This document shows positions 1 to 41,428 of a stretch of DNA of 42,126 nt, one piece after another. This DNA comes from Candidatus Iainarchaeum sp. GTDB lineage: Archaea > Iainarchaeota > Iainarchaeia > Iainarchaeales > DTGL01. Under the pieces are notes generated by a model. It was not told where the DNA came from. It did not search any database and saw only the letters and a program-made list of their open reading frames with translations. Position 1 is the first letter of the stretch. Each line of letters starts with the position of its first letter. The stretch lies in the NCBI GenBank assembly GCA_017608995.1, contig JAFCEU010000001.1, forward strand, positions 1-42,126, given 5' to 3'. The position numbers and the translations under genes are program-made.

Positions 1-40
1 TGAAGACTTAAAAAGCTATGAAATTAAAGGCATCCTTGCC
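1..40. repeat. Terminal overlap copy 1 (identical to 42087-42126); circular or terminally redundant genome
   Basis: 40/40 identical bases at both window ends; an ORF reads through the join in frame. Confidence 0.95.
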
Positions 41-1409: not shown

Positions 1410-2300
1410 GTGGTGGATAAAGACTTTGAAAACTTTAAGGAATTTGTGAAGACATACAGCCAAAGTACGCAAAAACTCTACTTGCATTACTTAACACAGT
1501 TCTTTTCCTTTGTCAAGAAGAGTAGCCAAGACGTTGAGGCAGTCGATGCAATGCGTTACCTGAATTTTTTGAGGGAGCAAAAGAACTATTCAGACAACAG
1601 CATTGCATCTGTTCGCAGGGTTTTAAGCGCTTACTTTGGTAAGCATGTTGGAAAAGACATAATGGCCAAAATACCAATTAAGAGGACAAAGCACTTGCCG
1701 GTTATTTTAACAAGGGAAGAAGTCAAGCGCTTGATTGATGCCGCTGACACCGAGAAAGAAAAGCTGGTCATCGAGTTCCTTTACTCAACCGGTGTCAGGG
1801 TATCGGAGGCCGTTGCCATTGAACGACAGCAGATTGACAAAAAGCGGGGCCTGCTGCGTATCAGAGGCAAAGGGGATAAGGACAGATATACAGTTATACC
1901 TTTGGATTGGCTGCGCCGTTATAGCCAGGTTTGGAAGAAGAAAAAACAGCGTTACCTTTTTGCGAAGAAGAATAACAAGCCATACGGCGTTCTTGCTTTT
2001 GAGAGGATTGTGCGAAGAGCAGCCGAGAAAGCGAGGCTGCGTAAGAGGGTTACGCCTCATACGCTTCGGCATTCTTTTGCCACACACTTGCTTGAGATGG
2101 GGGAGAATATTAGAAAGATTCAGAAGCTTTTGGGCCATTCTTCGTTGGCCACTACTCAGATTTATGTTTCAGTGTCCACTAAAGAGATTGCAAAGACACC
2201 GAGTTTGCTTGAGGGATTGAGTTGCAGTTTTAGGAATTGTGTTTTGCGGAAGCTGGGTAAGGGGCGACGGTCTGACCGTGCTTCAAGAGCGAAGGGATAA
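1410..2300 (+). CDS. tyrosine recombinase / integrase (XerC/XerD/XerA-like)
   Basis: GTG start after AAGGTGG. Signature residues are ...STGVRVSEA (Arg), HTLRHSFATHLL (H-x-x-R) and LLGHSSLATTQIYVSV (His, Tyr nucleophile). Confidence 0.9.
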   Translation: MVDKDFENFKEFVKTYSQSTQKLYLHYLTQFFSFVKKSSQDVEAVDAMRYLNFLREQKNYSDNSIASVRRVLSAYFGKHVGKDIMAKIPIKRTKHLPVILTREEVKRLIDAADTEKEKLVIEFLYSTGVRVSEAVAIERQQIDKKRGLLRIRGKGDKDRYTVIPLDWLRRYSQVWKKKKQRYLFAKKNNKPYGVLAFERIVRRAAEKARLRKRVTPHTLRHSFATHLLEMGENIRKIQKLLGHSSLATTQIYVSVSTKEIAKTPSLLEGLSCSFRNCVLRKLGKGRRSDRASRAKG

Positions 2301-3954: not shown

Positions 3955-4539
3955 ATGAAAATAACAAATGTGAAAATAAATGAATTTGAAAGATTGAAAG
4001 AAAAGAATGAACAATTGCTTGACAGCGTTCAAATTATTTTCTCTGAAGCTGAAGCAAGAGAAATAAGAAAAAAATACAAAAACATCTATAAAATTCTTGA
4101 ATACACAGAGAATTTTATAGAAGAAGATGAAGAAACCAGGGAAGAAGCTTATTTCATTCATTTAAAAAACGAAGAGTCAGGCTACAACGAAGAGGGCAAA
4201 TGGGAAGGTTATCTCAAGCGAAACGACATAACATATTCTGCAATTTCTTCGTTACAGAAAATTGAAGCGTTCTTAAAACAGAGAAAAAAAGAACAAGCAG
4301 AAAGAGAAATTATATATTTGCAGAAAGCAAAACAATTCAAGAAGAAAATAAGAAAATTACACAATTGCAATATCAAAAAGAAACGAGGGAAAGCATTAAG
4401 CACTTTCAAGGAAAGCCGATTTTTTCAGCTTACAAGGGGGTCTTTGAATAAATGCCTGATGCTTCCTTTTACATTTTTAAGCCAACAGGGAAGGAAAAAA
4501 AAGAGTTTTGGAAGGGGTGGCGTTAATGCCAGGCTTTAG
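3955..4539 (+). CDS. hypothetical Lys/Glu-rich protein
   Basis: AGGGAGATGA SD-like sequence before the ATG; 194-aa ORF. Confidence 0.6.
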   Translation: MKITNVKINEFERLKEKNEQLLDSVQIIFSEAEAREIRKKYKNIYKILEYTENFIEEDEETREEAYFIHLKNEESGYNEEGKWEGYLKRNDITYSAISSLQKIEAFLKQRKKEQAEREIIYLQKAKQFKKKIRKLHNCNIKKKRGKALSTFKESRFFQLTRGSLNKCLMLPFTFLSQQGRKKKSFGRGGVNARL

Positions 4540-4717
4540 CAAGGACAAGAAAACAGGGCGTTGGTTTTGTTCTGATTGCGGGGCAGAAGTGCCTAAAGAG
4601 GTTGTATTTTCTTCTTATGATTATTTTAATCCAGAAAACAATAAAGAACATAAGTGCGGGGTAGAACGCTTAAAAGAATTAGATAAAAAACTATCAAAAA
4701 TAAAAGGGGGTGAGTAA
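4526..4717 (+). CDS. small zinc-ribbon protein
   Basis: GGAAGGGGTGG SD, then ATG 4526; CSDCG...HKC. Confidence 0.6.
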   Translation: MPGFSKDKKTGRWFCSDCGAEVPKEVVFSSYDYFNPENNKEHKCGVERLKELDKKLSKIKGGE

Positions 4718-5182: not shown

Positions 5183-6019
5183 ATGCGGACTTATGTAAAT
5201 ACCGTTATGCAGGTTTCCGTTCAGGACTTGGGTTTTAACGGCTTTCAGTTTCCTATAAGTGTGTTCTCTCTAAACAGGGACAACAGTGTTAAATTCAATC
5301 AACAGCACAATAACGAGGCGTGCAGGGAGCAAGATGCAAGAGTAAATTACATAAAGCGTTGTAGTGCCTGCGGCAAGGACTTACAGGCAAGCGAGATAAT
5401 CAAAGTTTTCAGGGCGGACAAGGAAAGCAAGGCATATTTTACAGAAGAAGAAATAAAGGCGTTGAAGAAAACAACGGACAAAGTGGAAATAGTGGCAATA
5501 TCGCTAAACAAGGACATTCCAGATTACCTTAAAGGCGGTTGCTATGGCTTAAGCATTCAGCCAAAAAGCAAGACTTTAGCAAGCGATAAGCAGGCATACC
5601 TAACCCTTGTTTCATTTTTGGGCGAGGACTTGGCATTAATCGGCTATTTCAGTAGCAGGAACTCCACGCACTTGGTCAGGGTTTTCGCATTAACAAACTA
5701 TTTGCTAATGCAAAAGCTGGCCTTTGCCGAAAACTCACAGTTTGATGAGTTTATGCAGTTGCACACTCAACAAATGGGAAGCGTTGCCTTGCCAGACATG
5801 GCGATACTGCAACAAACAGCGAGAACAGTAGCAAAACCGTTGGCTTTAACGGATTTCAGGAATGAACCGCTTGAAAGATTGCAAGAATTGATTGAGAGCA
5901 GAATACAAAACCCAAACGCAAAAATAGAAGTGCCAGAACAGGCAACAGTGACAGCAACTCCAATATTCAGCAAGGAATACCAGCAAAAGATAGCCGAACA
6001 GGTGAAAGCAAGGGTGTGA
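5183..6019 (+). CDS. ku: Ku-like DNA end-binding protein
   Basis: ...VKFNQQH...RVNYIKRCSACGKDLQASEIIKVF...AYFTEEEIKAL...VEIVAI...YGLSIQP...AYLTLVSFL...LALIGYFSSRNSTHLVRVF... follows the prokaryotic Ku core pattern as I recall it from Mycobacterium Ku. Confidence 0.75.
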   Translation: MRTYVNTVMQVSVQDLGFNGFQFPISVFSLNRDNSVKFNQQHNNEACREQDARVNYIKRCSACGKDLQASEIIKVFRADKESKAYFTEEEIKALKKTTDKVEIVAISLNKDIPDYLKGGCYGLSIQPKSKTLASDKQAYLTLVSFLGEDLALIGYFSSRNSTHLVRVFALTNYLLMQKLAFAENSQFDEFMQLHTQQMGSVALPDMAILQQTARTVAKPLALTDFRNEPLERLQELIESRIQNPNAKIEVPEQATVTATPIFSKEYQQKIAEQVKARV

Positions 6020-6040
6020 AAACACCCTTATATTTTTTTT
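6010..6040 (+). terminator. stem-loop plus T8
   Basis: AAGGGTG/CACCCTT 7-bp stem enclosing the ku stop codon, followed by TATATTTTTTTT. Confidence 0.55.
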
Positions 6041-6131
6041 AAAAAAATTGGGGGTTGAGAAATGGAGTTTTTGAGCAGGGGAAAGGGTTTAACGCATAAG
6101 GAAGCGGTTGAATTAGGGCTAAGGTGGAAGA

Positions 6132-6983
6132 ATGAGTGAAACTTGTATGTTGTGCCAAGTGATAGCATTAGAGGAAGCATTACGCAATAACAACTATATT
6201 CTGGACTTAAAATATGACGGAAGCCGTTGTATTGCCAAGCGTTATGAAAATGGGGCAGTTGCCTTGTTCAACAGGCAGGGCAGAAATATAACATACCGAT
6301 ACCCCGAATTGTTAAAGGCCTTGCGGGGTTTTCTGCCTTGCGATAGCGTTGCAGATGGTGAAATAGTAATAATGAAAGATTGGGAAACACACTTAACCGA
6401 TTTTAATGCCTTGCAGGGCAGGGAACACCTGCAAAACACCTTTAAGATTAAACTGCGTTCCGAGAGCAACCCCGCAACCCTTGTCTTGTTTGACTTAATC
6501 CGCTTGCAAGGGCAAGACTTGGCTTGGCAACCAATTGAAAAAAGAAGGCAGGAACTACACAACCTTTTTACTTTTAATACTTTTAATACTTTTAATACTT
6601 CTAATAGAATAGTGGAAGTAAAAGAGTTTGAGAACCTGAAAGACGCTTGGGATTTCGTTAAAAAACACAATTTAGAGGGCTTAATATTAAAAGCAAAGGG
6701 AAGCCCTTACGAATACAGGCGTTCAAACAATTGGCTAAAATTAAAGAATACGAGAAGGGCAACAGTAGAGGTTTCAGGATATGAGGAACACCCAAAAGGC
6801 ATAACCCTAACAGGCAGAAAAATAAGGGTTGCCTGCAACGGACACCAAAGCATAGAGGTTAAGCGGTTGCTGGAACAAAAAGGCAGGTTGCAGGTAGAAA
6901 TAGAATACTTGGAAATGACTAAAAACGGTTTCTACCGTATGCCAACATTCAAAAAAGTGGTTGGATATGGCTTTTATTCCTGA
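6132..6983 (+). CDS. ATP-dependent DNA ligase (minimal NTase+OB type, LigD-ligase/Chlorella-virus-like size)
   Basis: Motif I KYDGSR, III DGEIVI, IIIa LVLFDL, IV EGLILK, V WLKLK, all in the canonical order; 283 aa. Confidence 0.9.
   Translation: MSETCMLCQVIALEEALRNNNYILDLKYDGSRCIAKRYENGAVALFNRQGRNITYRYPELLKALRGFLPCDSVADGEIVIMKDWETHLTDFNALQGREHLQNTFKIKLRSESNPATLVLFDLIRLQGQDLAWQPIEKRRQELHNLFTFNTFNTFNTSNRIVEVKEFENLKDAWDFVKKHNLEGLILKAKGSPYEYRRSNNWLKLKNTRRATVEVSGYEEHPKGITLTGRKIRVACNGHQSIEVKRLLEQKGRLQVEIEYLEMTKNGFYRMPTFKKVVGYGFYS
6570..6605 (+). repeat. 9-bp tandem repeat ACTTTTAAT x4 inside the ligase gene
   Basis: Three perfect units plus one with 1 mismatch; encodes (TFN)3-TSN between motif IIIa and motif IV. 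Confidence 0.9.
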
Positions 6984-7092: not shown

Positions 7093-7251
7093 ATGAGGTA
7101 TTGTAATAATTGTGAATACAGTTTTGCGACAAAACACACTTGCACTAACAAGAAAAGCGAATATTACGGCCTAACTATGAGGCAGATAGAGGAAAAAAAA
7201 GGCAGGGGTAAAGCCTTTTGCGTTTTATTCAAAAAAAAGAGAAGGTGGTGA
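7093..7251 (+). CDS. small Cys-containing protein (52 aa)
   Basis: GAGGTGA SD, then ATG 7093; CNNC...C; 53 codons verified by hand. Confidence 0.5.
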   Translation: MRYCNNCEYSFATKHTCTNKKSEYYGLTMRQIEEKKGRGKAFCVLFKKKRRW

Positions 7252-7254
7252 AAA

Positions 7255-7416
7255 TTGAAAATCTATATTGTTGTGGACACGCATGGAAGGGGAAAACAGG
7301 CAATACAGCAGGTTTTTACAAACCGAATAAAAGCCTTGAAATATATTGAAAAATGGGAAGCGTTAGGGCAAACAGGATTAGAAGTCTATATGTTTGAAAC
7401 AGGGGGGAGAAAATGA
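7255..7416 (+). CDS. hypothetical protein (53 aa, TTG start)
   Basis: GAAGGTGGTGA SD 5 nt before TTG 7255; stop overlaps ATG 7413 (ATGA). Confidence 0.45.
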   Translation: MKIYIVVDTHGRGKQAIQQVFTNRIKALKYIEKWEALGQTGLEVYMFETGGRK

Positions 7417-8504
7417 ACAAAGAAAAACAATTACAGGAATTAAAAAAGGAAATTAAAAAAGCAGGCCTGGACACTGATACAATTGATTTACTGAATTTGG
7501 TGGACAGCAGTTTAACCCTGAATGAAAACAGGCAAAACATCTTCAAGCAGTTAGGCATAACGCCAGCACAAAACTTTAAAGCCCAAGAGGAAAAAGCAAG
7601 GCAACAGATGATTGAAAGAGAGGAAGAACACGCCAGCCAAGAATTTAACAAGGCAATTGACAGAATAATACAAGAAAGCAATCCAAGAGTAGCACAACAC
7701 TACAAAAACGCAATTGACTACATAAAAATGGTTGCAGAAGGATATACCAACGCACTTATTTTATGTGGTGAGGGGGGTTTAGGTAAAAGCCATATAGCCC
7801 TAAAAACACTCAAAGAGGAAAACACTGAATTTGAATACGTATCGGGCTATATAACCCCCCTTCAATTAGTGAACCTACTTTATCAAGGGAATGGCAAGCT
7901 GTTCTTTTTTGACGATTGCGAGGGACTTTTTAATGACGATAAAACGTTGGCAATACTCAAATCAGCGACTTGGCAAATAGGAGATGAGAGAATAGTAATG
8001 TATCACAGTTCAACTGAAAAACTGACAGCTCCAACAAAGTTTTCCTGCAACAGCAGGTTTATCTTCTGCATAAACCAGCTTCCAAGCCAAAGCCCAACAC
8101 TTGAAGCCCTAATAAACAGAACGCTTTACTACAAAATCCATTTCCCATTCAAAGAAAAAATAAAACTATTTTTTGAAGTAGCAAAACAACCCTACAAAGA
8201 GTTAAGCAGGCAGGACAGATTTGCGGTAGTGCAATTCTTAAAAGAAAAGTGCAACGAGGCAACCGAAAACTTGAGTATAAGGACTTTGCTCAAGGGATTT
8301 GATATGCTTTCCTACTCTAAAAGCGGTTGGAAGAGGTTGCTTTCAGGCGTTTTGGATAAAAACGAATACCTTGATTTTATAATGCAAATTGAACATTTGA
8401 AACCATTAGAACAAGTGGAAGCGTTTAAGCAACGCTTTGGCTTAAGCCAAGCGACATTCTACCGAAAAAAGAAAATACTTAAAGAGAGAAGGGGGATTAT
8501 GTAG
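7413..8504 (+). CDS. AAA+ ATPase with C-terminal HTH-like tail (Orc1/Cdc6-like or clamp-loader-like)
   Basis: Walker A GEGGLGKSH, Walker B LFFFDDCE, sensor-1-like FIFCINQ, Arg-containing LSIRTLLK. Sits next to the PCNA gene. Confidence 0.8.
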   Translation: MNKEKQLQELKKEIKKAGLDTDTIDLLNLVDSSLTLNENRQNIFKQLGITPAQNFKAQEEKARQQMIEREEEHASQEFNKAIDRIIQESNPRVAQHYKNAIDYIKMVAEGYTNALILCGEGGLGKSHIALKTLKEENTEFEYVSGYITPLQLVNLLYQGNGKLFFFDDCEGLFNDDKTLAILKSATWQIGDERIVMYHSSTEKLTAPTKFSCNSRFIFCINQLPSQSPTLEALINRTLYYKIHFPFKEKIKLFFEVAKQPYKELSRQDRFAVVQFLKEKCNEATENLSIRTLLKGFDMLSYSKSGWKRLLSGVLDKNEYLDFIMQIEHLKPLEQVEAFKQRFGLSQATFYRKKKILKERRGIM

Positions 8505-8551: not shown

Positions 8552-9382
8552 GTGAAGATTGAAACAAGCGAGGAAGCACTGCAAGTAGTGAAAATGATTG
8601 CCGAAATGCAGGAAGTTTGCGGTGAAACAAACATTACAGCGACAAAAGACAAGCTACTAATACAAGCAATTGACGGAAGCCAAACCGCTTTTGTGGAAGC
8701 GGAAATTGAAACAAGCACAGGCGTAGAACAAGAGGAAAAATTTGGAGTAAACGCAAACGATTTAGCAACGGTTCTGCGGGCATTACGGGGGCAAACGCTG
8801 AAAATGGAAACAGGGGAAAAAAACGAGCTGGTAATCAAAACAGGGGACGACTACTCAAAAGAACAAAACGAGCTAACCTTGTTCCTTGAGCCAGCACACG
8901 ACTTGGAAATGGCAACCAAAGCAGTAAGGCAAATAGAACACACGCAAACAGTGAAAATAGAGGGAACACAGGATTTCAGAACAGGGCTGAAGCTGGCTGG
9001 TTTAATAGATGAGGGAACTGTGCTGTTTGAAACAACCAAAGACAACCTTTTTCTAATAACGGCAAACGGACAAAGAGGAACATTCAAGAGAAGAATACGC
9101 ATAAAGTCAGGTGTCCACGCAAAAGGGTTGCCTACAAAAACAGCATTAAACAGGGAGCAACTGTTACAGTTAGTGAAAGCAAAGGCAACAGATGTCCAAC
9201 TGCATTTAGGCAACAACAAGCCAATCCTAATAGAATACGAGTTAGGTAACGCAAAAACAAAGATATGGGTTGCCCCAAGAATAATGGACTACGAAAGCCC
9301 GACAGCGAAAGAAGAAGAAATAGAGGAATTGGAAGAAGGGGCAGAAGAAGAACAGGAAAAAGTAATGGAAGCAATAGCCTAA
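8552..9382 (+). CDS. PCNA-like sliding clamp with acidic C-terminal tail
   Basis: GTG start after AAGGGGGTGA. ...LLIQAIDGSQTAFVEAEI...FGVNANDLATVLRAL... and C-terminal ...IWVAPRI match the archaeal PCNA layout (compare the Pyrococcus PCNA C-terminal FLLAPRV). Confidence 0.75.
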   Translation: MKIETSEEALQVVKMIAEMQEVCGETNITATKDKLLIQAIDGSQTAFVEAEIETSTGVEQEEKFGVNANDLATVLRALRGQTLKMETGEKNELVIKTGDDYSKEQNELTLFLEPAHDLEMATKAVRQIEHTQTVKIEGTQDFRTGLKLAGLIDEGTVLFETTKDNLFLITANGQRGTFKRRIRIKSGVHAKGLPTKTALNREQLLQLVKAKATDVQLHLGNNKPILIEYELGNAKTKIWVAPRIMDYESPTAKEEEIEELEEGAEEEQEKVMEAIA

Positions 9383-9406
9383 TGGCTATTGCCCTTTTTC
9401 TTTTTT
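9371..9406 (+). terminator. stem-loop plus T-tracts
   Basis: Perfect 9-bp stem GCAATAGCC/GGCTATTGC around the PCNA stop, followed by CCTTTTTCTTTTTT. Confidence 0.6.
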
Positions 9407-16459: not shown

Positions 16460-18433
16460 TTAATACAGTGTGTTTACTCCTCCGCCACTGTCTTTATAAA
16501 CGAGTTTCGATTGAGTGGTTGAGTAGTAGATTGAATTATTAGGTGCTGCCGCATCTGTGGAGCTGATTGGCCTGAAATACCCGCTTCCGTCTATTACGGT
16601 TGAACCGCCGACGTCAATGTTTCCGTCGCTGTCAATTGAAACTTTAGTGTTCCAGCCAGAGTCGCGAATATTGAAACTTCTTGCCCCGGCTGAGTCTCCC
16701 AAAATAACATAGGCGCTCTTATTGGAAGCGCAGATTGTATAAACATTCCCGCCATACCCTATGAAGATGTCATTATTAGATGAAATTACTCCATACCCAG
16801 ATGCGTTTATATACATGCCAACATATTTGCCGCTTTGGTCGTCATACCCATTCACCTTAACCCCTACACTGTCCGCTCCCTGATTTAGTGTTATTCCTGT
16901 TGAGCCATCCCCTGTTGCTGTTATGCTTCCTGTTGATAATGTCCCTGTTGTGCTTAAATCTTCATCACCGAAATCTATGCTTCCTGTTGAATCTGTTATT
17001 GAACCGGTTCCTAAGGTCATTGTATTTACTGTTACAAAATTTATAGATGTCAGGTTGCTGAATATTGGAGTTCCACTGGTTGTTACATCCTGGTCAATAT
17101 AGGTATGTGATGTTCCATCAGAAGTTGAATGGGTTTCAGAAATTGTAATTGTATCAGTTGTAGCATCGCCAGTTACAGTAATTGCTCCTCCAACAGCTAA
17201 ATTTAATGTATCTGCAAAGCTCTCTGCTACAGGGTTAGTTCCAGCAGGGCAGGAAATGGTTTTAAAGATATAGACATCTGTTCCGCCTTGCTGTAATGTT
17301 CCTGCATTTATTGTCCCTGTTGTGCTTAAATCTTCATCACCGAAATCAATGCTTCCTGTTGAATCTGTTATTGAACCGGTTGCTAAGGTCATTGTATTTA
17401 CTGTTACCTGACTGAATGTTGGAGTTCCACTGGTTGTTACATCCTGGTCAATATAGGTATGTGATGTTCCATCAGAAGTTGAATGGGTTTCAGAAATTGT
17501 AATTGTATCAGTTGCCGCATCGCCAGTTACAGTAATTGCTCCTCCAACAGCTAAATTCAATGTATCTGCAAAGCTCTCTGCTACAGGGTTAGTTCCAGCA
17601 GGGCAGGAAATAGTTTTAAAGATATAGACATCTGTTCCGCCTTGCTGTAATGTTCCTGCATTTATTGTCCCTGTTGTGCTCAAATCTTCATCACCGAAAT
17701 CAATGCTTCCTGTTGAATCTGTTATTGAACTACCAGCAATAGTAAGTGTTCCTGCAGTAATAGATGTGTTTGCTTGTATTGTTCCGAACCCAGACAGATT
17801 ACTTCCACTCCAAGATGCAGTTCCGTCTGTTAAAGAAACTAGTCCTGTTCCAGCTCCTCCTGTAAAACTAATAGTCCCGTCTGTTAATGTTCCTGCATTT
17901 ATTGTCCCTGTTGTGCTTAAATCTTCATCACCGAAATCAATGCTTCCTGTTGAGCTTGTGAGTGAGTCAGTTGCAATGGTTATGTTTCCAAATGTTGCTG
18001 CTACCCCAGAAATACCCCATCCGCCCAAGTTTATGTCTTGATTGGCGTTTGAGCCATCAAGTTTTAGCCACTGTGTGTCGCCATATGAATCCACTCTTGC
18101 ATCAGTGTAATACAAATTAGTTGCGCCTTCAGGGATATCATCTGTATCAACTTGGCCTGGACCGCTTCCCCAATCTATATGGGTATCCTTAACGGCATCT
18201 ATCGCATCTGCTATCGCCCCAACTTGGGCAGCTGTTACATTATGAGGGTTTGACATGTCAGCAATGTGGTCCTGGGCTGTCTTCAAAGTGGTTGTTGTGT
18301 CCCAGCCGCTTCCCCCATACCTTGCGTCATGGTCGGAATTGGTGCCATCTAAATCAGGCATATCTGTTAAATCAGTATGGCTAATCTGCTCAAATGGCAA
18401 ACCCCGATGATGCCTAATTTTGGGCATATTCAT
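16460..18433 (-). CDS. fibre-like repeat protein (about 657 aa)
   Basis: N-terminal ...DHIADMSNPHNVTAAQVGA... motif, which is common in phage tail-fibre proteins. Gly/Thr/Ser-rich, with four STGSIDFGDEDLSTTGT motifs. Start is ambiguous (ATG 18436/18433/18427) and overlaps the upstream gene. Confidence 0.85.
   Translation of the reverse strand: MNMPKIRHHRGLPFEQISHTDLTDMPDLDGTNSDHDARYGGSGWDTTTTLKTAQDHIADMSNPHNVTAAQVGAIADAIDAVKDTHIDWGSGPGQVDTDDIPEGATNLYYTDARVDSYGDTQWLKLDGSNANQDINLGGWGISGVAATFGNITIATDSLTSSTGSIDFGDEDLSTTGTINAGTLTDGTISFTGGAGTGLVSLTDGTASWSGSNLSGFGTIQANTSITAGTLTIAGSSITDSTGSIDFGDEDLSTTGTINAGTLQQGGTDVYIFKTISCPAGTNPVAESFADTLNLAVGGAITVTGDAATDTITISETHSTSDGTSHTYIDQDVTTSGTPTFSQVTVNTMTLATGSITDSTGSIDFGDEDLSTTGTINAGTLQQGGTDVYIFKTISCPAGTNPVAESFADTLNLAVGGAITVTGDATTDTITISETHSTSDGTSHTYIDQDVTTSGTPIFSNLTSINFVTVNTMTLGTGSITDSTGSIDFGDEDLSTTGTLSTGSITATGDGSTGITLNQGADSVGVKVNGYDDQSGKYVGMYINASGYGVISSNNDIFIGYGGNVYTICASNKSAYVILGDSAGARSFNIRDSGWNTKVSIDSDGNIDVGGSTVIDGSGYFRPISSTDAAAPNNSIYYSTTQSKLVYKDSGGGVNTLY
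16941..17725. repeat. near-identical tandem duplication inside the fibre gene (periods 372 and 354 bp), with a further partial unit starting at 17904
   Basis: GTCCCTGTTGTGCTTAAATCTTCATCACCGAAATC... recurs at 16941, 17313, 17667 and 17904. Units 1 and 2 differ mainly by one short indel block. Confidence 0.9.
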
Positions 18434-18830
18434 CATATCTCCAAATCTCAACTTCAACAACAATGCCTGCGGTTTCACTCATTACATAAATCGCGTTAAT
18501 TTCACGGTTTGGCACTGTGTCTTCACTTAAAACATCTCCTGAAGAAAGCGTCATATAAGTTGAATGGGTTGGCTCAAAACAGTATTTCAGCTCATAGTTG
18601 CCACGAGCCTTCAACTGCCAGGTAACAATCTCGGGCTCTAATTTTATTTCATACCATTTCCCAGCCTCGTTCAAATAATGGTTAATGATGTGTGAGTAAA
18701 TTGGCCTTTTTTCTTCAGTTTTAACCTCTTTTACCTCTTTTACCTCCTTTGTTGGCTTAATGCCTTTTTTCAATTCTTCAGCCAAAAAAACCACTTGAGG
18801 CCAAGAAAAACTATTTTTCAACGATAGCAA
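18414..18830 (-). CDS. hypothetical protein; start codon uncertain
   Basis: No ATG near the 5' end (TTG at 18830 or GTG a few codons in). Contains (KEV)3; the C-terminal beta-rich part overlaps the fibre gene start. Confidence 0.55.
   Translation of the reverse strand: MLSLKNSFSWPQVVFLAEELKKGIKPTKEVKEVKEVKTEEKRPIYSHIINHYLNEAGKWYEIKLEPEIVTWQLKARGNYELKYCFEPTHSTYMTLSSGDVLSEDTVPNREINAIYVMSETAGIVVEVEIWRYDEYAQN
18724..18750. repeat. 9-bp tandem repeat x3 (mRNA sense AAAGAGGT-A/T)
   Basis: ACCTCTTTT ACCTCTTTT ACCTCCTTT on the + strand; encodes KEVKEVKEV and resembles three SD sequences. Confidence 0.85.
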
Positions 18831-18975: not shown

Positions 18976-20019
18976 TCAAACTGAATTAATAAGTTTTTTC
19001 CATTGGTCCCCGCATTTTTGAATGGAAAATTGTTCTTCAACGACTTTTCTTGGAGAGAACTCGTTTTCCAACACTTTTGCAACCGCTTCCCTGTATGGTT
19101 CATATTCCCAAAATTTAACTCTAATCCCAAGCCTTTTGTTCCAAAAGTCCCACCAAACACCAGTTTTTTGGGTAATAACCGGAATGTTGCATGCGGCTGC
19201 CTCCAAGCTGCTTAACCCAAAGCTTTCACAGCAGGTTGGCAAAACAAAAAAATCAGCTAAATTATATATTTCCGGCATTTGGCTTCTTGGGAGCATTTGA
19301 ATAATGCGTACATTCTTGCTTTTCGCTTTATTTGGAGCGGGCTCAGTAAAGCAAACCACCCAAAAAACGTCTTTGAATTCTTTTATAAGCCTTGTGAGAA
19401 TATGCCACCCCTTGGCCGGATGGAACTTTATTACACTCAAGCCCACTTTTTTATCTAACGGAATACCCCATTTGCGCCTTAAAATCTTTTTTTTGCCCAA
19501 GGGTCTGAATTTCTGCATACTAACCCCCTCATTTATGACTTTATGGCACTTGACATCAATTTTTTTCATATAGGCCTGCATGAATTTGCTTACAGCAACA
19601 TTGCAGGCTGACTTCTCACCTGTTTTTCTCTGTAAGTCAGTGCAAGCATTATAATGTTCCATGCTTTCCAAAAAATAGCCATAAAAATATAAAATCTTAG
19701 AAATGGTATCAAAAGGGTCCTGGAAAACCGTTACAATCGGTGTCTCCAAATCAAAGTAACCGCCAATCGCTGAATTTTTAACAATTACATCCAAAGGAAA
19801 AATTTTTTCATACTCTTTCAAGTAGTCCTCAATAATCCGAGACCTAAAAACAGCGTCAAAACCCTGCCTAATAAGGTTAACATTTAAAGCCTTTGCAGCT
19901 GAAGAAAAGGAAATCTGAGGAGCATTCAAAATTTCACTCAAATAAGAAAAAAAGGTTTCTTGGCCTCCGCTCCATTCATCTGACTTATTCCAGTTAACAA
20001 TTAAAGCCTTTTTCATCAA
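18976..20019 (-). CDS. glycosyltransferase, GT-B fold (group 1 / GT4-like)
   Basis: C-terminal ...LPTCCESFGLSSLEAAACNIPVI... matches the E-x7-E region of group-1 glycosyltransferases. Confidence 0.85.
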   Translation of the reverse strand: MMKKALIVNWNKSDEWSGGQETFFSYLSEILNAPQISFSSAAKALNVNLIRQGFDAVFRSRIIEDYLKEYEKIFPLDVIVKNSAIGGYFDLETPIVTVFQDPFDTISKILYFYGYFLESMEHYNACTDLQRKTGEKSACNVAVSKFMQAYMKKIDVKCHKVINEGVSMQKFRPLGKKKILRRKWGIPLDKKVGLSVIKFHPAKGWHILTRLIKEFKDVFWVVCFTEPAPNKAKSKNVRIIQMLPRSQMPEIYNLADFFVLPTCCESFGLSSLEAAACNIPVITQKTGVWWDFWNKRLGIRVKFWEYEPYREAVAKVLENEFSPRKVVEEQFSIQKCGDQWKKLINSV

Positions 20020-20756
20020 ATCACTTTCCTTCCAAGCAGTTTGTTGATTTTCTGGAAGATTCGCTGGTTGTTTTCACTAATCTTTTGTATCCTCTGCTGC
20101 TGCGTAACCATTCCAGAATGCATCCTGTATTTAAACAAGGGCAGCGGGACGTGCTTGAACTTAATCCTTTTAACCAGCATGCATCTAAGCAAATGCTCCA
20201 AGTCCTCTCCAAAACGCAGTGTTTCGTCAAAATTGTTTTCTTTAAACAGTTTAGTTGGCCCAAACAGGTTATAGCACACGCTCATGGTATTGTTTCTCGC
20301 TTGAACAACAGAGTTGATTACAAAGTCTTCATAGCTTTTAAACTCTGGTGCTCTGAATAAGCTTATTATCTCGCCGCCCACATTTATAACAAAATAGTCT
20401 GAGAAAAGAAAGCTTTTTCTGTCCGCATGTTTCAGCATTTCCTCCAAATAATTCGGCATAAACAAGTCATCTGCACTCAAAAAGCACAAATACTCTCCTC
20501 TGGCTTCTTTTACGCCTCTTGCCCGTGTTCCGCCAATGCCAAGGTTTTCCTCATTCCTTACATATCTGACATTCCGGCGGAACATTTGACCCCAGTTAAT
20601 GGCTTCAGGGCTTTTGTCAGTTGAGGCGTCATCAACCACGACAACTTCAAAGTCCTTAAAGGTCTGGTTGAAAACGCTTTCAATCGCCTGCCCAACAAAC
20701 ATTTCTGCATTATAGCAGGGGATTACCACACTAATCATTTTACCGCCTTTTTCCAT
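20016..20756 (-). CDS. glycosyltransferase family 2
   Basis: AAGGAG SD. ISVVIPCYNAEMFVGQAIESVFNQTFKDFEVVVVDDASTD plus LSADDL (DxD). Confidence 0.9.
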   Translation of the reverse strand: MEKGGKMISVVIPCYNAEMFVGQAIESVFNQTFKDFEVVVVDDASTDKSPEAINWGQMFRRNVRYVRNEENLGIGGTRARGVKEARGEYLCFLSADDLFMPNYLEEMLKHADRKSFLFSDYFVINVGGEIISLFRAPEFKSYEDFVINSVVQARNNTMSVCYNLFGPTKLFKENNFDETLRFGEDLEHLLRCMLVKRIKFKHVPLPLFKYRMHSGMVTQQQRIQKISENNQRIFQKINKLLGRKVI

Positions 20757-21187
20757 TTCTTAAACTCCTTTAAAGCCAAGGCAAAGGCTTCCGCTAATTC
20801 AACAAATTCCTTATGCGAAACATCCAGCCTATAAGATTTATAGTGTATGTGAATCATATTTTTTGGCATATGCGGCAGGTCTCCCTGCACCTCTATTTTA
20901 AAATCAGTCGGTCTTCTGCCATGAACTGGCGGTATTTTATGGAAAAACAGGTATTCTGGCAGCGATTTATTCGGCTCTGGGGCAGGGCAACCATTGTCCC
21001 TCCATTTCTCGTAAGCAGTAGTTACCGCTTCACAAAATTGGCAGAATTCTTCTTCGTCAAAAATCAGTCTCAGGTTACGCCAATGCAAATGAAAGTCCTC
21101 ACACCTCTCAACTGTATGCATGTCAGCATAAATATCTGAAACAGGGTCCACTTTACCATCAAACAACATTTTTTTCACGCTACCCAT
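20735..21187 (-). CDS. hypothetical protein (150 aa)
   Basis: ORF in the glycan island; His/Cys-containing; no family recognised. Confidence 0.65.
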   Translation of the reverse strand: MGSVKKMLFDGKVDPVSDIYADMHTVERCEDFHLHWRNLRLIFDEEEFCQFCEAVTTAYEKWRDNGCPAPEPNKSLPEYLFFHKIPPVHGRRPTDFKIEVQGDLPHMPKNMIHIHYKSYRLDVSHKEFVELAEAFALALKEFKKWKKAVK

Positions 21188-21638
21188 TCAAAGCCTCCTC
21201 AATTTTTTTTAATAGGTTTTCCTGCCTCTGCCCCATTGTTCCCTCAAACTCTGGCAAAACATCGTCCATGGTATTATTGCGCTTATGCTTCCCCAAATAC
21301 TGTTTCAAAACCCTATCAAAAGGAACAAACAAGTAAATGAAGGAAATCTTCCGACCTGTTTCCCTCCTGATAAACTCAATGGTGTTGTCCTCATCAAATT
21401 TATACCAAAAACGGTTCCACTTAAACCAGTTGTCCACAACAAAACCAGCGTCCCTTTCGTTGAGTTTTTTAATAAAAGCATTCAAAAACTGCTTTTTATT
21501 GTTCTTGCTTTTTTTGTGGTATTCTTCATCAAAATCAACATAACCATAGCCTTTTAAACAAGCGTATTCCTTGGCAAAAGTAGTTTTCCCGCTGCCCATC
21601 AAACCACATACGACAACCAACTCAGCCAATTTTACCAC
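21180..21638 (-). CDS. P-loop kinase-like protein (AAA_33 / zeta-toxin / PNK-like)
   Basis: VVVCGLMGSGKTTFAKEY Walker A near the N-terminus; about 150 aa; GTG start. Confidence 0.7.
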   Translation of the reverse strand: MVKLAELVVVCGLMGSGKTTFAKEYACLKGYGYVDFDEEYHKKSKNNKKQFLNAFIKKLNERDAGFVVDNWFKWNRFWYKFDEDNTIEFIRRETGRKISFIYLFVPFDRVLKQYLGKHKRNNTMDDVLPEFEGTMGQRQENLLKKIEEALNG

Positions 21639-21708
21639 CTTTTTGGAATTTCATTACTGCCTGTTCAAATCCTGTTCCCCAAAGGTTTTATCAGCAAAAT
21701 CTTTTTAG

Positions 21709-22230
21709 TCAAACCTTTTTCACCACGCAAAAAAATTCTTGTTTTTGCCAAGGAGCAACCTCCAGCTCCTGTATTTTTCCAAACTTTTTAACCAATTCTT
21801 CAAATTCCTGTGGAGAAAATTCTTTTAAGTGGTCTGGTGAATGAACCCAGTTTCTTTTGTCTGGAGTGACTATGATTAGCTTTCCTCCTTTTTTCAAAAC
21901 CCTGAACCATTCTTCCAAAGCCTTTTTTGCTTCAATGTGTTCAATTAGGTGGCTTGATATAACAAAATCAAAGCATTCGTCAGCAAAAGGCAGTTTTCTC
22001 GCATCCCACTGCAAATCCGCTTCTGATATAAAGCCCTTTGTTTTGTTGGTTATTCCCCCTTTTTGAATAATATCCACATTTAGGATTTCCCCGCTAACCC
22101 TGCTGTGCCCTCCGCCCAATTCAATTCCAAGACCCTTGCAGTGAGTTAAAATCCATTCCTTTCTTTTCAGTTTGAAGGGAAACTCCTCGTCTGATGGGCT
22201 TTTGTGCAGCTTAAACAAGCAACTCACCAT
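21709..22230 (-). CDS. class I SAM-dependent methyltransferase
   Basis: LGIELGGG (motif I), FDFVISSHLIEHI, VLKKGGKLIIVTP. Start taken at ATG 22230 (the track ORF extends to 22299 inside the upstream gene). Confidence 0.8.
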   Translation of the reverse strand: MVSCLFKLHKSPSDEEFPFKLKRKEWILTHCKGLGIELGGGHSRVSGEILNVDIIQKGGITNKTKGFISEADLQWDARKLPFADECFDFVISSHLIEHIEAKKALEEWFRVLKKGGKLIIVTPDKRNWVHSPDHLKEFSPQEFEELVKKFGKIQELEVAPWQKQEFFCVVKKV

Positions 22231-22948
22231 ATTCAATTGGCTTCGGTTTTTTGCATATCTTTGGTTCACAGCCTTCAGGAAACAGCTCATGGGAAACATG
22301 CTCTAAAACCAGCCCGCTTTCGTCCAAGCATTTTTTTCTGATTTCTACAGGCACGCCGTGAGCTGTCCGCTCTCTCCACCTGTCAACAATAAACCTATAG
22401 GTTGAATACCCGTAGTGAATCACAGTAAAAGGGGCAAGCCCCTGTTTGCCCAATCCTTGCGGAAACAAATCCAAATGCAGGCCCTTTCCAACAGCAAATT
22501 TTAGCCTTCCGTTGTTCCTCCACAGCCTCAAAAATTTACCTGACCCCAAATAATCTTTTCTGGCCCAGCAATCGCTCCTCCACAAAGTTATCTCTGGAAA
22601 CCAATAACCGTCAGCGCCGGAAGCAAACTCACAAAAATCTCTTAAACTGTTCGTTCCCTTTCTATCCAAAACCTCATCGCAGTCAAGCCAGAAGAACCAG
22701 TCAATATCAGGGCGTTTCTTCAAAGCAAACTCTAAAAGCTGCTGCTTGTGCGCTGTCTCATTCAAGAAATCGTTTTCCTTTCCTTCTAAAATCAAGCCGG
22801 TGTATTCTTTTGCGACTTCAACGCTGTTATCTGTGCTCCCATCATCATAAAAAGCGATTTCATCACAATAACGCTGCATATTATCAAGACAGCGTCTCAA
22901 GTTTCCCTTGGATTCCTCATTATAGCATTGGACAAAACCACAAATCAT
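22211..22948 (-). CDS. glycosyltransferase family 2-like
   Basis: FVQCYNEE...FYDDGSTDNS...WLDCDEV; ATG 22948 just after the radical SAM stop. Confidence 0.8.
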   Translation of the reverse strand: MICGFVQCYNEESKGNLRRCLDNMQRYCDEIAFYDDGSTDNSVEVAKEYTGLILEGKENDFLNETAHKQQLLEFALKKRPDIDWFFWLDCDEVLDRKGTNSLRDFCEFASGADGYWFPEITLWRSDCWARKDYLGSGKFLRLWRNNGRLKFAVGKGLHLDLFPQGLGKQGLAPFTVIHYGYSTYRFIVDRWRERTAHGVPVEIRKKCLDESGLVLEHVSHELFPEGCEPKICKKPKPIEYGELLV

Positions 22949-22952
22949 TTCA

Positions 22953-23924
22953 TCACACAAATTTCTGGTGCTTTATGTCTGAGATTAAAATATCCAACAG
23001 TTCATTGTAATGGGAATAATAACACTTATCGCATTTCGAGCCATCAAAACACCTTTGGTTTGCCCAGATTTCCTCTATTTCATCAACAGAGCCCATTTCA
23101 CCCTCATAATCACGCTTCGGGTTCTTGAACATATACTGCGATCCACAACAAGGGTAAAGCTTGCCGTTTGCTCCAACAACAGGTTTCAGCAAGCTTATTA
23201 AGCATTTTTTAGTGCCCTTAGTCCAAGTGCCTCTATCCTGATAAATTACTTTACTATCGTCAACACCAAGCTTTTTCAAAACAAACTTAACTGCCTCCAT
23301 TTTCCCTTCAAGCTTGTTAGCGATAAAAATATCATTAACAAGCCTAACATGTGTGAAATCGTATTCGTTGGCGTACTCAATCATTTTTTGAATCAAAGGC
23401 AAGTTGGGGTTTTCTCCAACAACATATGAAAACGCCCAATCAGTATTCCCTCTAAGCCAAGCCATCTTCAAAGGCCCTTCAATTTCCTCGAATTTTCGAT
23501 GGTCGCCTAAGGAAATTCTGCACCAGCGAAGCATATCTATGGTTTTTTTCGAAAGCCTATTGAGAAGAGTTCCGTTTGTTACTAAGCCCATCTCTATTCC
23601 CATTTCGTGAATTGCCCAAATTAAAGCATCTATGTGATTGTGCTTCAGAGGCTCGCCTCCGCCCGTGATGGTCACACTTTTACATCCAAGCTTCTTAAAT
23701 TTTTGCATTACATCAACAATTTTCTCAAAAGGCATTTCGATTTTTTTGTCCCTTGCACTGCAGGAACAGAAAGGACAGTTCAGGTTACAACGATTAGTTG
23801 GGTTCAATTGAACATGGATTGGCGGAATTTGTTTTCTCTCAGTCAAGTTCTTCATCAGTTCTTTGTTGAAAAACACTTTCACTGGGAATGCGCTGGCCGC
23901 AGTATAGGATTCTTTTTCATTCAT
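22953..23924 (-). CDS. radical SAM enzyme with Cys-rich C-terminal domain
   Basis: GGGAGG SD; ATGA overlap with the upstream GT. NPTNRCNLNCPFCS (CxxxCxxC), GGGEP, and C-terminal ...YPCCGSQ...CFDGSKCDKCYY. Confidence 0.9.
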   Translation of the reverse strand: MNEKESYTAASAFPVKVFFNKELMKNLTERKQIPPIHVQLNPTNRCNLNCPFCSCSARDKKIEMPFEKIVDVMQKFKKLGCKSVTITGGGEPLKHNHIDALIWAIHEMGIEMGLVTNGTLLNRLSKKTIDMLRWCRISLGDHRKFEEIEGPLKMAWLRGNTDWAFSYVVGENPNLPLIQKMIEYANEYDFTHVRLVNDIFIANKLEGKMEAVKFVLKKLGVDDSKVIYQDRGTWTKGTKKCLISLLKPVVGANGKLYPCCGSQYMFKNPKRDYEGEMGSVDEIEEIWANQRCFDGSKCDKCYYSHYNELLDILISDIKHQKFV

Positions 23925-38876: not shown

Positions 38877-40656
38877 AATAATACCCCCTTATACGCATAT
38901 ACTGTTCAACCAAGGGCTTTGACAGCTCATATTCAACCCCGGCGCCAACCCTTCGCTTCTTAATCAAAGGAATCCGACTCAAACGCCTACCAACAAAGCG
39001 GGGAGTCGGCAAGCTCCTGCCTCTGATTCTTTTATACTCCTGCTCGGTATCAACACCGGCTTCAACCATCAAATGCTCTTTCAGCCAGGAAGTAATTTGG
39101 GTAGTAGAATAGTGCTTGGGCTCATCAATTACATTAGCCAAAATAGAGGCAAACAGGGCGTAGTCCCAGTCGCCGCTCAAATCAACCTTTGCCCTGTCGC
39201 CAAAACAGTTTACCAGAAAATCCAGCATTTGCTGGTGAAGGGCAGAGTCAATTCCTTTCACAATAGCCAGCGGGCCTTTTACCAGCTCTAAATCCCGGTT
39301 ATTAAGCACAGTACACTCATAAGACTCGTAATCCTGCTGGATTCTTTTCCAGTGCGTTAAAACATAGATATGGCAAAAATCCCTAATCAACTGCCATATT
39401 TGGTTTCTGTCATCAGGTTCTCTTTTCCCTTTCTCAGTCAAAGTTTTCATCAGGTGAATTGGAATACACCTTGAGAGAGTAACCGGCTCCAGGCCAGAAA
39501 TGTTTGTAATGATTTTGGGGCAGTAGCAGTCAAAAAACTTTGGTTGAAAGACATCACGCTTTCGCTCAACCCTCATTGTTTTGCCCTTTTTTTTGTAGCC
39601 AATTTTCAGGATTTGAAGCAAAGCATTCCTTTTCTCCTCGGACATCTTGTCGAAGTCGTCTATAACCATTAAACCTTTGAATAGCTCAGGGGCCCTGAAC
39701 AAGGCCGAATCGCTTGGGTCGCTTGCGTCAATTGTGTGGAATGAGCAATTCCCGATTATTTCAGCAAATTTCGTTTTTCCGCTGTCGGATTCCGAGTTGA
39801 AGAAAAGATAGCCAATAGACCTGAATAACTCGAAGCAGTAGGTTGCAATGATATAGGCCGCACCAATCAAGAAAATTCGCTTGTCTGTTACATCCATAAA
39901 GTAGTCCTGGGTTTTTATGAGAATTTCAAACAGGGTTTTTCCTAACTGGTTTGGTGTAGTTTTAGTGTAGTTTAGTGTAGTTTTAGTGTAGTTAATTTTT
40001 AGTGTAGTTTTAGTGTAGTTAGGTGTAGTTAAGGTTTCTGCAATTGGTGTAGTTAGTGTAGGATATGAGGTAGGTCTATACAGATAGGTGAGATGTATAT
40101 TTTTTTTATTTTTTTTATTTATATAAAGGAGCTTCTTTAGAGTATTATCTACACTACCTTCTACATATGCACTAACTACACCACCTACACTTTCAGCATT
40201 TTTACAGAAGTCCGCAATTGATTTATTGCTCCAAGCGTTATCAGTCGGCACCAGCGAAATTCTATAATTCAATCCGGCTTCCTTAATCTCATTTCTTCCA
40301 TAGGACTCGTTTTTCTTTTTTCCTCCTCCAACCTTGACACCACTATAATCAATTAAAACACACCCATTGTCAAAAATCACACTGTCCACAAAGTTTCCTT
40401 CCAATTCTATTTTTTTCCCAAAATAAAAATGGTTTTGGAAAATGCCTTGATTTAAATTATAATGTATAATTTCATCCAGCTTCTCAAAAATTTTCCCCCC
40501 GTTTGTTCTCTCAAAATCATATCGCTCGAGTTCCCAGTCCTTATGTTTACATTCACAGAAGACCTCTGGGATAACAGGCTTTTGTCCCCTTTTCAATTCT
40601 TGGCTAAGCAAATTTCCGCATCGCCTGCATTTCCAGATAGCGGTCTTATCGGCCAT
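38860..40656 (-). CDS. replication protein: N-terminal zinc finger plus P-loop NTPase (DUF3631-like / primase-associated helicase-like)
   Basis: AAGGAGGGGGAAA SD before ATG 40656. CRRCG...CEC; Walker A SESDSGKTK; ...SALFRAPELFKGLMVIDDFDKM (Walker B); ...LKIGYKKKGKTMRVE...CYCPKIITNISGLEPVTLSRCIPIHL resembles the DUF3631 core. Confidence 0.8.
   Translation of the reverse strand: MADKTAIWKCRRCGNLLSQELKRGQKPVIPEVFCECKHKDWELERYDFERTNGGKIFEKLDEIIHYNLNQGIFQNHFYFGKKIELEGNFVDSVIFDNGCVLIDYSGVKVGGGKKKNESYGRNEIKEAGLNYRISLVPTDNAWSNKSIADFCKNAESVGGVVSAYVEGSVDNTLKKLLYINKKNKKNIHLTYLYRPTSYPTLTTPIAETLTTPNYTKTTLKINYTKTTLNYTKTTPNQLGKTLFEILIKTQDYFMDVTDKRIFLIGAAYIIATYCFELFRSIGYLFFNSESDSGKTKFAEIIGNCSFHTIDASDPSDSALFRAPELFKGLMVIDDFDKMSEEKRNALLQILKIGYKKKGKTMRVERKRDVFQPKFFDCYCPKIITNISGLEPVTLSRCIPIHLMKTLTEKGKREPDDRNQIWQLIRDFCHIYVLTHWKRIQQDYESYECTVLNNRDLELVKGPLAIVKGIDSALHQQMLDFLVNCFGDRAKVDLSGDWDYALFASILANVIDEPKHYSTTQITSWLKEHLMVEAGVDTEQEYKRIRGRSLPTPRFVGRRLSRIPLIKKRRVGAGVEYELSKPLVEQYMRIRGYYFEEVG
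39954..40063. repeat. iteron array: 8 perfect GTGTAGTT copies plus 1 partial, mostly 10-11 bp apart
   Basis: Copies start at 39954, 39965, 39975, 39986, 40002, 40013, 40023 and 40047 (partial at 40056); they lie within the replication gene. Confidence 0.85.
40096..40127. promoter_or_regulatory. 32-nt 100% A+T tract (candidate DNA-unwinding element)
   Basis: TATATTTTTTTTATTTTTTTTATTTATATAAA, flanked by the iterons and by an inverted AACTACAC copy at 40174-40181. Confidence 0.5.
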
Positions 40657-41304: not shown

Positions 41305-41428
41305 AACAATAAAAGGAGATTTGATATTAGAAAAAACAATAAAAGGAGATTTGGTCTTAGAAAAAGACACCGTATTTGATAAAAGCATTAGTGTTGAGGG
41401 TAACATTGTTCAAAGCATGGAACATTAA
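41297..41428 (+). CDS. MTKTIKGDL N-terminal module (43 aa) with an internal 30-bp duplication; paralog of 464..625
   Basis: ATG 41297; TIKGDLILEK/TIKGDLVLEK duplicated. The frame stops at 41426-41428 just where the repeat ORF is open in the +1 frame. Confidence 0.5.
   Translation: MTKTIKGDLILEKTIKGDLVLEKDTVFDKSISVEGNIVQSMEH

Follow-up and report, generated by a model that had tools for sequence, protein, structure and literature searches.

The window analysed here, the whole 42,126-nt stretch of contig JAFCEU010000001.1 from Candidatus Iainarchaeum sp., carries at positions 5183–6983 a gene for a Ku protein followed by a gene for a minimal ATP-dependent DNA ligase. A preliminary description of this DNA had proposed that the two genes are adjacent and co-oriented and supply non-homologous end-joining (NHEJ) to an archaeal virus genome. 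Both open reading frames (ORFs) were found complete on the + strand, 112 nt apart with no ORF in the gap, and the assignments of Ku, ligase and neighbouring genes are far above chance level. The features of the pair were as follows.

5183..6019, + strand: prokaryotic-type Ku, 278 aa (Pfam, PDB sequence match, AlphaFold2 (AF2) model, Foldseek).
6132..6983, + strand: minimal ATP-dependent DNA ligase, 283 aa, with a nucleotidyltransferase (NTase) domain and a short OB domain (PF01068, TIGR02779, motifs I–VI, AF2, Foldseek).
6569..6606, + strand: near-perfect in-frame tandem repeat of 9 nt within the ligase gene, 4.2 copies, encoding FNT repeats (TRF).

The ORF at 5183–6019 is a genuine Ku by family score, sequence match and fold. 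The Ku beta-barrel core was recognized by PF02735 (Pfam Ku) with 39.8 bits (E=5.9e-10) against a gathering score of 25, the alignment covering residues 18–186 and profile positions 2–173 of 190, a significant match in the profile search that the preliminary description had suggested. The ORF also matched PHROG 4873 (Ku-like DNA end binding; 3.4e-8), and in a PDB sequence search the solved bacterial Ku chains 8v53 and 9i91 aligned with it over nearly the full length (E=1.6e-9). Its sole NCBIfam match was TIGR02772 Ku_bact at 61.7 bits, which does not reach the equivalog cutoff of 150; the orthologue at a related locus (L009, below) scored 82.9 bits on the same model. On these scores the window protein is best described as a divergent member of the prokaryotic Ku family.

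The AF2 model of Ku, built as a monomer on 51 homologues, had a mean predicted local distance difference test (pLDDT) score of 87 and a predicted template modelling (pTM) score of 0.74, and Foldseek assigned it the fold of solved bacterial Ku protomers. The top PDB match was the Mycobacterium tuberculosis Ku homodimer (9i91; E=1.5e-13, target TM-score 0.77), the Bacillus subtilis Ku homodimer (9vnq_B; E about 1e-13) gave a target TM-score of 0.84 with a root-mean-square deviation of 2.9, and eukaryotic Ku70/80 cores ranked after bacterial Ku. Following a variable linker, the C-terminal peptide IFSKEYQQKIAEQVK is conserved in the window and in the related loci L002 and L009. A passage of PMC4889933 describes the C-terminal region of bacterial Ku as recruiting LigD, and the conserved peptide, which occupies an analogous position, is a candidate ligase-recruitment element.

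The ligase matched PF01068 at E=1.1e-33. Motifs I (K27-x-D29-G30-x-R32), III (D75-G-E77), IIIa (F120-D121), IV (E182-G183..K187) and V (W201-x-K203-x-K205) were seen in this order in the 283-aa product, as had been described, and motif VI was present as well in the form of R269, conserved within R-x-P-x-F-K. Among 48 ligase relatives K27, D29, G30, R32, D75, E77, F120, D121, G183, K187 and K203 were invariant and E182 and W201 nearly so, and K205 was invariant in a 15-sequence alignment. The AF2 model (pLDDT 94.3, pTM 0.88) superposed on DNA ligases over both the NTase and the OB domain in Foldseek, with residues 206–278 forming a beta-rich OB domain at pLDDT >90. This OB domain is shorter than that of LigD, and its Pfam OB_2 match was sub-threshold. 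The sole internal block of low confidence, residues 151–160, is the loop of FNT repeats between motifs IIIa and IV, which is gapped or variable among homologues.

Full-length LigD carries polymerase and phosphoesterase domains. The 283 aa of the window ligase leave no room for a fused AEP polymerase and 3'-phosphoesterase, and Pfam found no N-terminal DNA-binding, polymerase or phosphoesterase domain in it (PF13298 and PF21686 unmatched); Pfam and PHROGs domain scans likewise found no Prim-Pol or phosphoesterase domains anywhere in the window. Among the 13 NCBIfam ligase models matched, TIGR02779 (LigD/NHEJ ligase domain) ranked first at 148 bits. Full LigD models came next (135 and 118 bits), and dnl1, the model of the Lig1 superfamily, was far lower at 89 bits. 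Because the TIGR02779 score lies below the equivalog-domain cutoff (148 vs 227.75 bits) and the match covers the NTase domain alone, the enzyme is classed by its scores as a divergent relative of the LigD ligase domain and not as an equivalog. Beyond a small clade of 250–280-aa ligases, its next relatives in a large protein database were annotated as LigD or NHEJ ligases (74–50 bits), some of them fused to a LigD phosphoesterase domain. Fold comparison with Foldseek does not separate LigD-like from Lig1-like ligases. On balance, the ligase appears nearest to the NHEJ ligases, by a moderate margin.

The pair is placed in a replication block, upstream of genes for a P-loop ATPase and a sliding clamp, with a hairpin between Ku and ligase.

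6010..6038, + strand: terminator-like element made of hairpin AAGGGTGTGAAAACACCCTT and a following T-run; it overlaps the Ku stop codon (consensus scan and sequence).
7413..8504, + strand: P-loop ATPase, 363 aa, Walker A GEGGLGKS, Walker B FFFDD (PHROG 1250, 7e-23).
8552..9382, + strand: archaeal-type PCNA sliding clamp, 276 aa, with an acidic C-terminal tail (PDB profile search, NCBIfam).

The contexts of relatives were recovered via ligase and Ku matches, close Ku relatives being extremely few. Protein lengths and, in brackets, identities to the window were as follows.

Window: Ku 278 aa; gap 112 nt; ligase 283 aa; ATPase 363 aa; clamp 276 aa.
L002: Ku 278 aa (72 %); gap with two small ORFs; ligase 273 aa (64 %); ATPase 375 aa (70 %); clamp 299 aa (57 %).
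L009: Ku 277 aa (53 %); gap with a 98-aa ORF; ligase 279 aa (48 %); ATPase 378 aa (38 %); clamp 281 aa (31 %).
L010–12 (identities for L010): Ku 281 aa (28 %); gap with a 46-aa ORF; ligase 267 aa (37 %); ATPase 366 aa (45 %); clamp 288 aa (26 %).
L013 (1–4977): no Ku within 1.4 kb upstream; ligase 272 aa (43 %); ATPase 364 aa (75 %); clamp 277 aa (72 %).

The synteny search suggested in the preliminary description therefore recovered the gene order Ku–ligase–ATPase–PCNA in three further metagenomic lineages (L002, L009 and L010–12), and the linkage of ku to the ATP-dependent ligase gene, adjacent or near-adjacent, is conserved in four of the five lineages, L013 being without Ku. The ATPase gene adjoins the PCNA gene in all five. 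The ORFs that lie between Ku and ligase in the other lineages are small and unrelated. The pairwise identities to the window are uneven, which suggests that Ku–ligase and ATPase–PCNA form two cassettes, each exchanged independently of the other. A more distant minimal ligase (P0071) had an unrelated context without Ku. No further copies of the module were recovered from IMG/VR, which gave one distant ATPase match, or from a metagenome scan, which re-found only L012, and the Ku–ligase–ATPase–PCNA module is rare in the collections searched.

A second group of Ku proteins was found by profile search, a sister clade of about 35 members of roughly 265 aa. Four of its loci (L005–L008; Ku P0012, P0039 and P0017) lie on three long contigs with phage-like replication modules that include SSB, Prim-Pol, ERF and a DEAD-box helicase. 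An ATP-dependent ligase of 367–382 aa, for which TIGR02779 was the best model, is encoded 4–8 kb upstream of Ku in three of these three contigs. Ku is therefore accompanied by a LigD-like ligase in two separate mobile-element lineages. In L008, a weak AcrVA2-like gene lies 0.7 kb downstream of Ku.

The nature of the replicon bears on how the pair is read, and two of its features were as follows.

1..40, no strand: exact 40-nt overlap with 42087–42126, marking a closed or circularly permuted replicon of 42,086 bp (end comparison).
39950..40190, no strand: origin-like region with about eight tandem TAGTGTAGTT iterons, an AT-rich tract and inverted iterons (repeat finders and sequence; function predicted).

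In a second JGI metagenome (3300033156) the element was assembled as a contig rotated by about 0.7 kb that reads through the window junction, and a third copy, co-linear with the window, was present in sample 3300033150. The end overlap and the rotated contig crossing the junction show that the window represents a replicon of 42,086 bp, closed or circularly permuted, and no chromosome fragment; such circular or rotated assemblies are compatible with either a circle or a cos or permuted genome. The copy in the second sample (L001) differs from the window by a 56-nt indel directly after the junction (41–96) and by an insertion/deletion patch of about 135 nt and 60 nt at 4354–4543, in the ORF at 3955–4539, and is 99.9–100 % identical over the rest of the alignment.

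It is extremely improbable that the window derives from a cellular chromosome carrying a conventional NHEJ locus, or that the Ku call is spurious, and a chromosomal fragment, which would have undone the proposal of a mobile genome, was rejected. The sole point in favour of this explanation is that the viral nature of the element is unproven. It is contradicted by the exact end overlap together with the independent rotated assembly, by the absence of tRNA and Rfam RNA (including rRNA) genes from the window, by the origin-like iteron region, and by a Ku whose Pfam score lies above the gathering threshold and whose model adopts the fold of the family. Searches for proviruses or a host with Ku, PCNA and ATPase profile queries also found no relatives among 185,579 reference genomes. 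No nucleotide match to deposited phages or plasmids was obtained in the phage and plasmid collections.

The host signals of the element were taken from its clamp, from its relatives and from one recombinase.

1410..2300, + strand: tyrosine recombinase of the archaeal XerA type, an integrase or dimer resolvase (NF040815, PF00589, PF13495).

The recombinase scored 229 bits on NF040815 recomb_XerA_Arch, above the cutoff of 220, and 183–184 bits on the bacterial XerC and XerD models, both sub-cutoff (XerD 184 vs 330). A five-sequence PCNA profile matched Thermococcus and Pyrococcus PCNA structures over the full length at 1e-23 to 1e-22, compared with 1e-15 or weaker for single eukaryotic PCNA chains and about 1e-6 for the bacterial beta clamp. 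On NCBIfam the window clamp scored 58 bits on archaeal PRK01115 vs 32 bits on eukaryotic pcna, all scores being under the equivalog cutoffs. The neighbour is thus a full-length two-domain clamp that is best matched by archaeal models and structures, in agreement with the preliminary description. Archaeal models were also preferred by the L009 and L010 clamps and the L002 recombinase, and an MCM-like gene was present at a related locus. The XerA-type recombinase, the affinity of the PCNA and the signatures of the relatives point to an archaeon as the probable host.

For the proposed archaeal virus genome, the archaeal signatures and the closed 42-kb mobile element were borne out; the viral part was not, as no capsid, portal, terminase or packaging ATPase gene was recognized among about 60 ORFs by Pfam, PHROGs or NCBIfam. 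Judged by gene content, the long minus-strand block would fit a non-tailed archaeal virus and a plasmid equally well. We therefore refer to an archaeal mobile element, virus or plasmid, whose status as a virus is putative and unproven.

We consider it moderately probable that the two genes constitute a minimal element-encoded end-joining pair on this 42-kb circular archaeal mobile element. In this view, double-strand ends of the element's own DNA would be bound by a Ku homodimer threading onto them and held for its cognate 283-aa LigD-type ligase, which consists of NTase and OB domains only. The ligase would join blunt or compatible ends without prior processing by a polymerase or nuclease. 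The pair might re-close the replicon after a break caused by nuclease attack or replication collapse, or close a linear form after entry. This explanation draws on the identification of both proteins as complete, the LigD-type affinity of the ligase, a gene order shared by four lineages and the second, phage-like lineage in which the pairing recurs; from these we infer the partnership of Ku and ligase, its substrate and its biological purpose. It is also consistent with the absence of a PCNA-interacting (PIP) box from both proteins and with the scarcity of Ku in archaea. As most archaea lack NHEJ, an element of this kind would need its own ligase and could not borrow host LigD as mycobacteriophages do; given how scarce Ku is in archaea, a borrowed host ligase would be unavailable. 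The rarity of archaeal Ku, already noted in the preliminary description, agrees with a 2025 survey that lists 19 archaeal Ku sequences in OrthoDB, together with 11 viral ones, all from actinobacteriophages (PMC11936186).

Several observations weigh against an end-joining pair. L013, the locus closest to the window by ATPase and PCNA, retains ligase–ATPase–PCNA but shows no Ku over the 1.4 kb upstream, so that Ku is not a strict requirement for the ligase slot. In the PDB sequence search, human LIG1 (53.5 bits) and archaeal replicative ligases (53–50 bits) ranked first for the ligase, with the M. tuberculosis LigD LIG domain slightly lower at 39 bits, and Ku and ligase each score under the NCBIfam equivalog cutoffs. 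An end-processing polymerase or phosphoesterase was not found on the element by Pfam or PHROGs. The element was assembled as a circle from both samples and thus offers no obvious source of DNA ends. Because a hairpin and T-run lie in the gap and unrelated ORFs fill it in other lineages, an operon or co-transcription of Ku and ligase stays putative, and Ku-stimulated end joining by the pair, and with it the autonomous end-joining module of the preliminary description, is itself a prediction from the genes.

Much of this bears on the main rival explanation, in which the ligase would be a replication or nick-sealing enzyme of the ATPase–PCNA module, acting on Okazaki fragments or gaps, and Ku would separately be a Gam-like protector of the ends of linear replication or packaging intermediates against host nucleases, their adjacency reflecting a shared early-gene block. 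Its strongest point is the retention of ligase–ATPase–PCNA without Ku in L013, against which stand the Ku gene upstream of the ligase in four of five lineages and the co-occurrence of the second Ku clade with LigD-like ligases. The PDB ranking of Lig1 and archaeal replicative ligases also argues for it, whereas the LigD ligase-domain model, and not Lig1, was the best for all module ligases, which at 267–283 aa lack the N-terminal DNA-binding domain of replicative ligases. Ligase and PCNA share one co-oriented block, yet no conserved PIP box was found; tethering of ligase or Ku to PCNA was considered and rejected, as neither family has a conserved canonical PIP box. The terminator-like element separates Ku from ligase, and Gam of phage Mu, a Ku homologue, works without a phage-encoded ligase according to a passage of PMC8136500. 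Taken together, we regard this replicative role as unlikely, though deserving serious consideration.

Phage Mu Gam offers a direct comparison for the Ku protein. In the part of PMC8136500 that deals with it, Gam is a Ku homologue that binds DNA ends and promotes end joining with Escherichia coli ligase. It resembles the window Ku in being an end-binding protein of the Ku family encoded by a mobile element. Mu Gam differs in using a host NAD-dependent ligase and in chiefly shielding ends from RecBCD, whereas the window encodes a canonical prokaryotic Ku of full length together with an ATP-dependent ligase of its own.

In the phage genome collection, Ku was found only in Omega- and Corndog-type Mycobacterium phages and on one unannotated gut-metagenome fragment. 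The viral structure library BFVD contained two Ku-fold entries only, from a Corndog-type phage and an uncultured tailed phage. Neither the phage collection nor the viral structure library nor the literature that was searched yielded a Ku of an archaeal virus, in line with the preliminary description, which was not aware of such a module in archaeal viruses. The element resembles Corndog and Omega (clusters O and J) in carrying Ku of the same fold on a mobile genome (Dylan Ku, BFVD, E=2.8e-12), with distant sequence similarity of about 22 %, and is unlike them in bringing its own LigD-type ligase, archaeal signatures and linkage to PCNA. Corndog and Omega Ku reportedly depend on host LigD to circularize the incoming genome. 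To our knowledge, every phage Ku studied so far, few as these are, works with a ligase of the host. Circularization of this type needs a virion with linear DNA and short cohesive ends, which for the element are hypothetical.

When the window ligase was used as a tblastn query, no Mycobacterium phage matched. The nearest phage ligases, at 24–31 % identity, were those of Bacillus SPbeta-type, Geobacillus, Rhizobium, Sinorhizobium and Bradyrhizobium phages, and some of those in SPbeta-type, Rhizobium and Sinorhizobium phages are annotated as NHEJ ligases. The window enzyme shares the two-domain NTase plus OB architecture with other minimal ATP-dependent ligases, such as Lig E, the Chlorella virus type, SPbeta LigB/YoqV and the rhizobial phage enzymes (Foldseek query TM-score 0.69 against Lig E 6gdr). 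The element differs from SPbeta-type and rhizobial phages in having Ku, as neither Ku query matched those phage genera. By genus tallies of the phage collection, the Ku-bearing and ligase-bearing sets do not overlap, and a pairing of Ku with its own LigD-type ligase was not found in any catalogued virus, as far as annotation and sequence matches indicate.

The closest archaeal parallel is Methanocella paludicola, in which NHEJ reportedly comprises separate Ku, Lig, Pol and phosphoesterase proteins. The window is similar in its archaeal context and in having a stand-alone ligase-only enzyme beside Ku instead of a fused LigD. It differs in that dedicated polymerase and phosphoesterase proteins belong to Methanocella, none having been found in the window, and in that the window pair lies on a mobile element and is linked to an ATPase and PCNA, a distinction drawn from descriptions and not from sequences.

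Among plasmids, the 19-kb Thermocaproicibacter melissae plasmid pTVN (L018, NZ_CP101828.1) has Ku next to a full-length LigD, and an extrachromosomal element with Ku and a ligase is therefore not new as such. Both pTVN and the window are extrachromosomal replicons on which Ku adjoins an ATP-dependent ligase of the LigD ligase-domain type. They differ in that ligD of pTVN is 2,442 nt long (about 810 aa), whereas the window ligase has 283 aa with NTase and OB domains only, and in the archaeal setting of the window. Ku was also found on Clostridium plasmids. On pTVN, the Ku and LigD genes lie about 3.5 kb from type III-A CRISPR genes (cas6, csm5).

Such plasmids also bring in the possibility that the pair is host-benefit cargo of lysogenic or plasmid conversion, which would supply NHEJ to an archaeal cell lacking it, for example to help non-growing cells survive, instead of acting for the DNA of the element itself. 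NHEJ genes are ordinary bacterial plasmid cargo, as in the 19-kb Thermocaproicibacter Ku–LigD plasmid and the Clostridium Ku plasmids; the window genes, in contrast, are inside a conserved replication block beside ATPase and PCNA and not in a variable cargo region. Their order is retained across lineages while Ku identity falls from 72 % to about 28 %, and their GC content (0.39–0.40) is the same as in the rest of the element. The recombinase would permit long-term integration, and L009, the sole traceable sample, comes from deep, slow-growing Guaymas Basin subsurface sediment (PMC10579335), as a benefit to non-growing cells might lead one to expect. We consider cargo of this kind improbable.

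The end-joining reading can be extended to an archaeal virus or virus-like family with a self-sufficient two-protein system, Ku and a ligase-only LigD relative beside its own PCNA and ATPase, that would close or re-close its genome in hosts without NHEJ. We put this forward tentatively, as a possibility short of even likelihood, with circularization after entry and survival of CRISPR or restriction cuts as possible uses. The circularization and counter-defence roles suggested in the preliminary description are plausible conjectures. If the extended proposal is true, this would be the first complete NHEJ system borne by a virus and the first Ku in the archaeal mobilome.

An archaeal mobile element with both halves of the reaction would show that end joining can be a portable trait of mobile DNA, and would provide biochemistry and genome-engineering tools with a very small two-protein NHEJ system (278 + 283 aa). 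It would also make testable whether mobile elements use NHEJ for establishment or for survival of nuclease-based defence. A second, phage-like lineage likewise combines Ku with a LigD-like ligase, which suggests that the strategy extends beyond this one element. These points are of relevance to the fields of archaeal mobile elements and prokaryotic NHEJ.

The remaining features of the module are its spacers and the details of its ATPase. An AT-rich tract lies between the terminator-like hairpin with its T-run and the ligase gene.

7093..7416, + strand: two small ORFs of 52 and 53 aa, forming a variable ligase–ATPase spacer (ORF list, JGI gene calls).
9371..9392, no strand: hairpin with T-runs on both strands, where the + block meets the - block (consensus scan).

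The 52- and 53-aa ORFs had no homologues in the syntenic loci. The neighbour described earlier as an AAA+ ATPase is a P-loop ATPase by its PHROG 1250 match, the AAA+ membership being backed solely by weak DnaC/IstB-like matches; no PDB relative was found by sequence profile. Its C-terminal stretch SQATFYRKKK is conserved and looks helix-turn-helix-like by eye. The PHROG 1250 family, whose function is unassigned, has unannotated relatives (25–31 % identity) in large Bacteroides, Vibrio and other bacteriophages, and therefore spans bacterial and archaeal mobile elements. PADLOC matched none of 10 proteins to defence systems.

The iterons of the origin-like region lie within a mechanical 632-aa ORF (38860–40758, minus strand), which probably represents two genes, one upstream for a Zn-ribbon protein and one downstream for a P-loop NTPase (Walker A SESDSGKT), also on the minus strand; neither half matched Pfam, PHROG or NCBIfam families. 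Two candidates for virion proteins were discarded. A 'baseplate' match (3e-4) was discounted as it falls on a tandem-repeat protein, and a 298-aa ORF was rejected as a capsid candidate because its conserved Cys/His/Glu columns indicate a metal-binding protein. This 298-aa protein (27067–27963, minus strand) has no family match and about 200 relatives in a representative library, many of them as two halves of about 125 aa. Its conserved residues (N16, E28, H30, C46, K49, H50, E60, H64, R103, R106, C121 and C124) suggest that the family is an unknown metal-binding one.

In a dense glycosylation cluster at 18976–25096 (minus strand), four glycosyltransferases, two of GT4 type and two of GT2 type, occur together with a radical SAM enzyme, a methyltransferase and a small kinase-like P-loop protein. 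On its flanks are encoded proteins that are secreted or membrane-anchored, as well as a beta-helix/pectinesterase-like protein and a ConA-like lectin. Repeats within genes were present at 16460–18478 (minus strand; 354 nt x 1.9, 98 % identity), at 30833–30941 (48 nt x 2.3, 100 % identity) and at 41380–41590 (15 nt, or five residues, x 10.5) in the ORF at 41376–41708. Paralogous N-termini lie on both sides of the junction, at 456–543 and 41289–41406.

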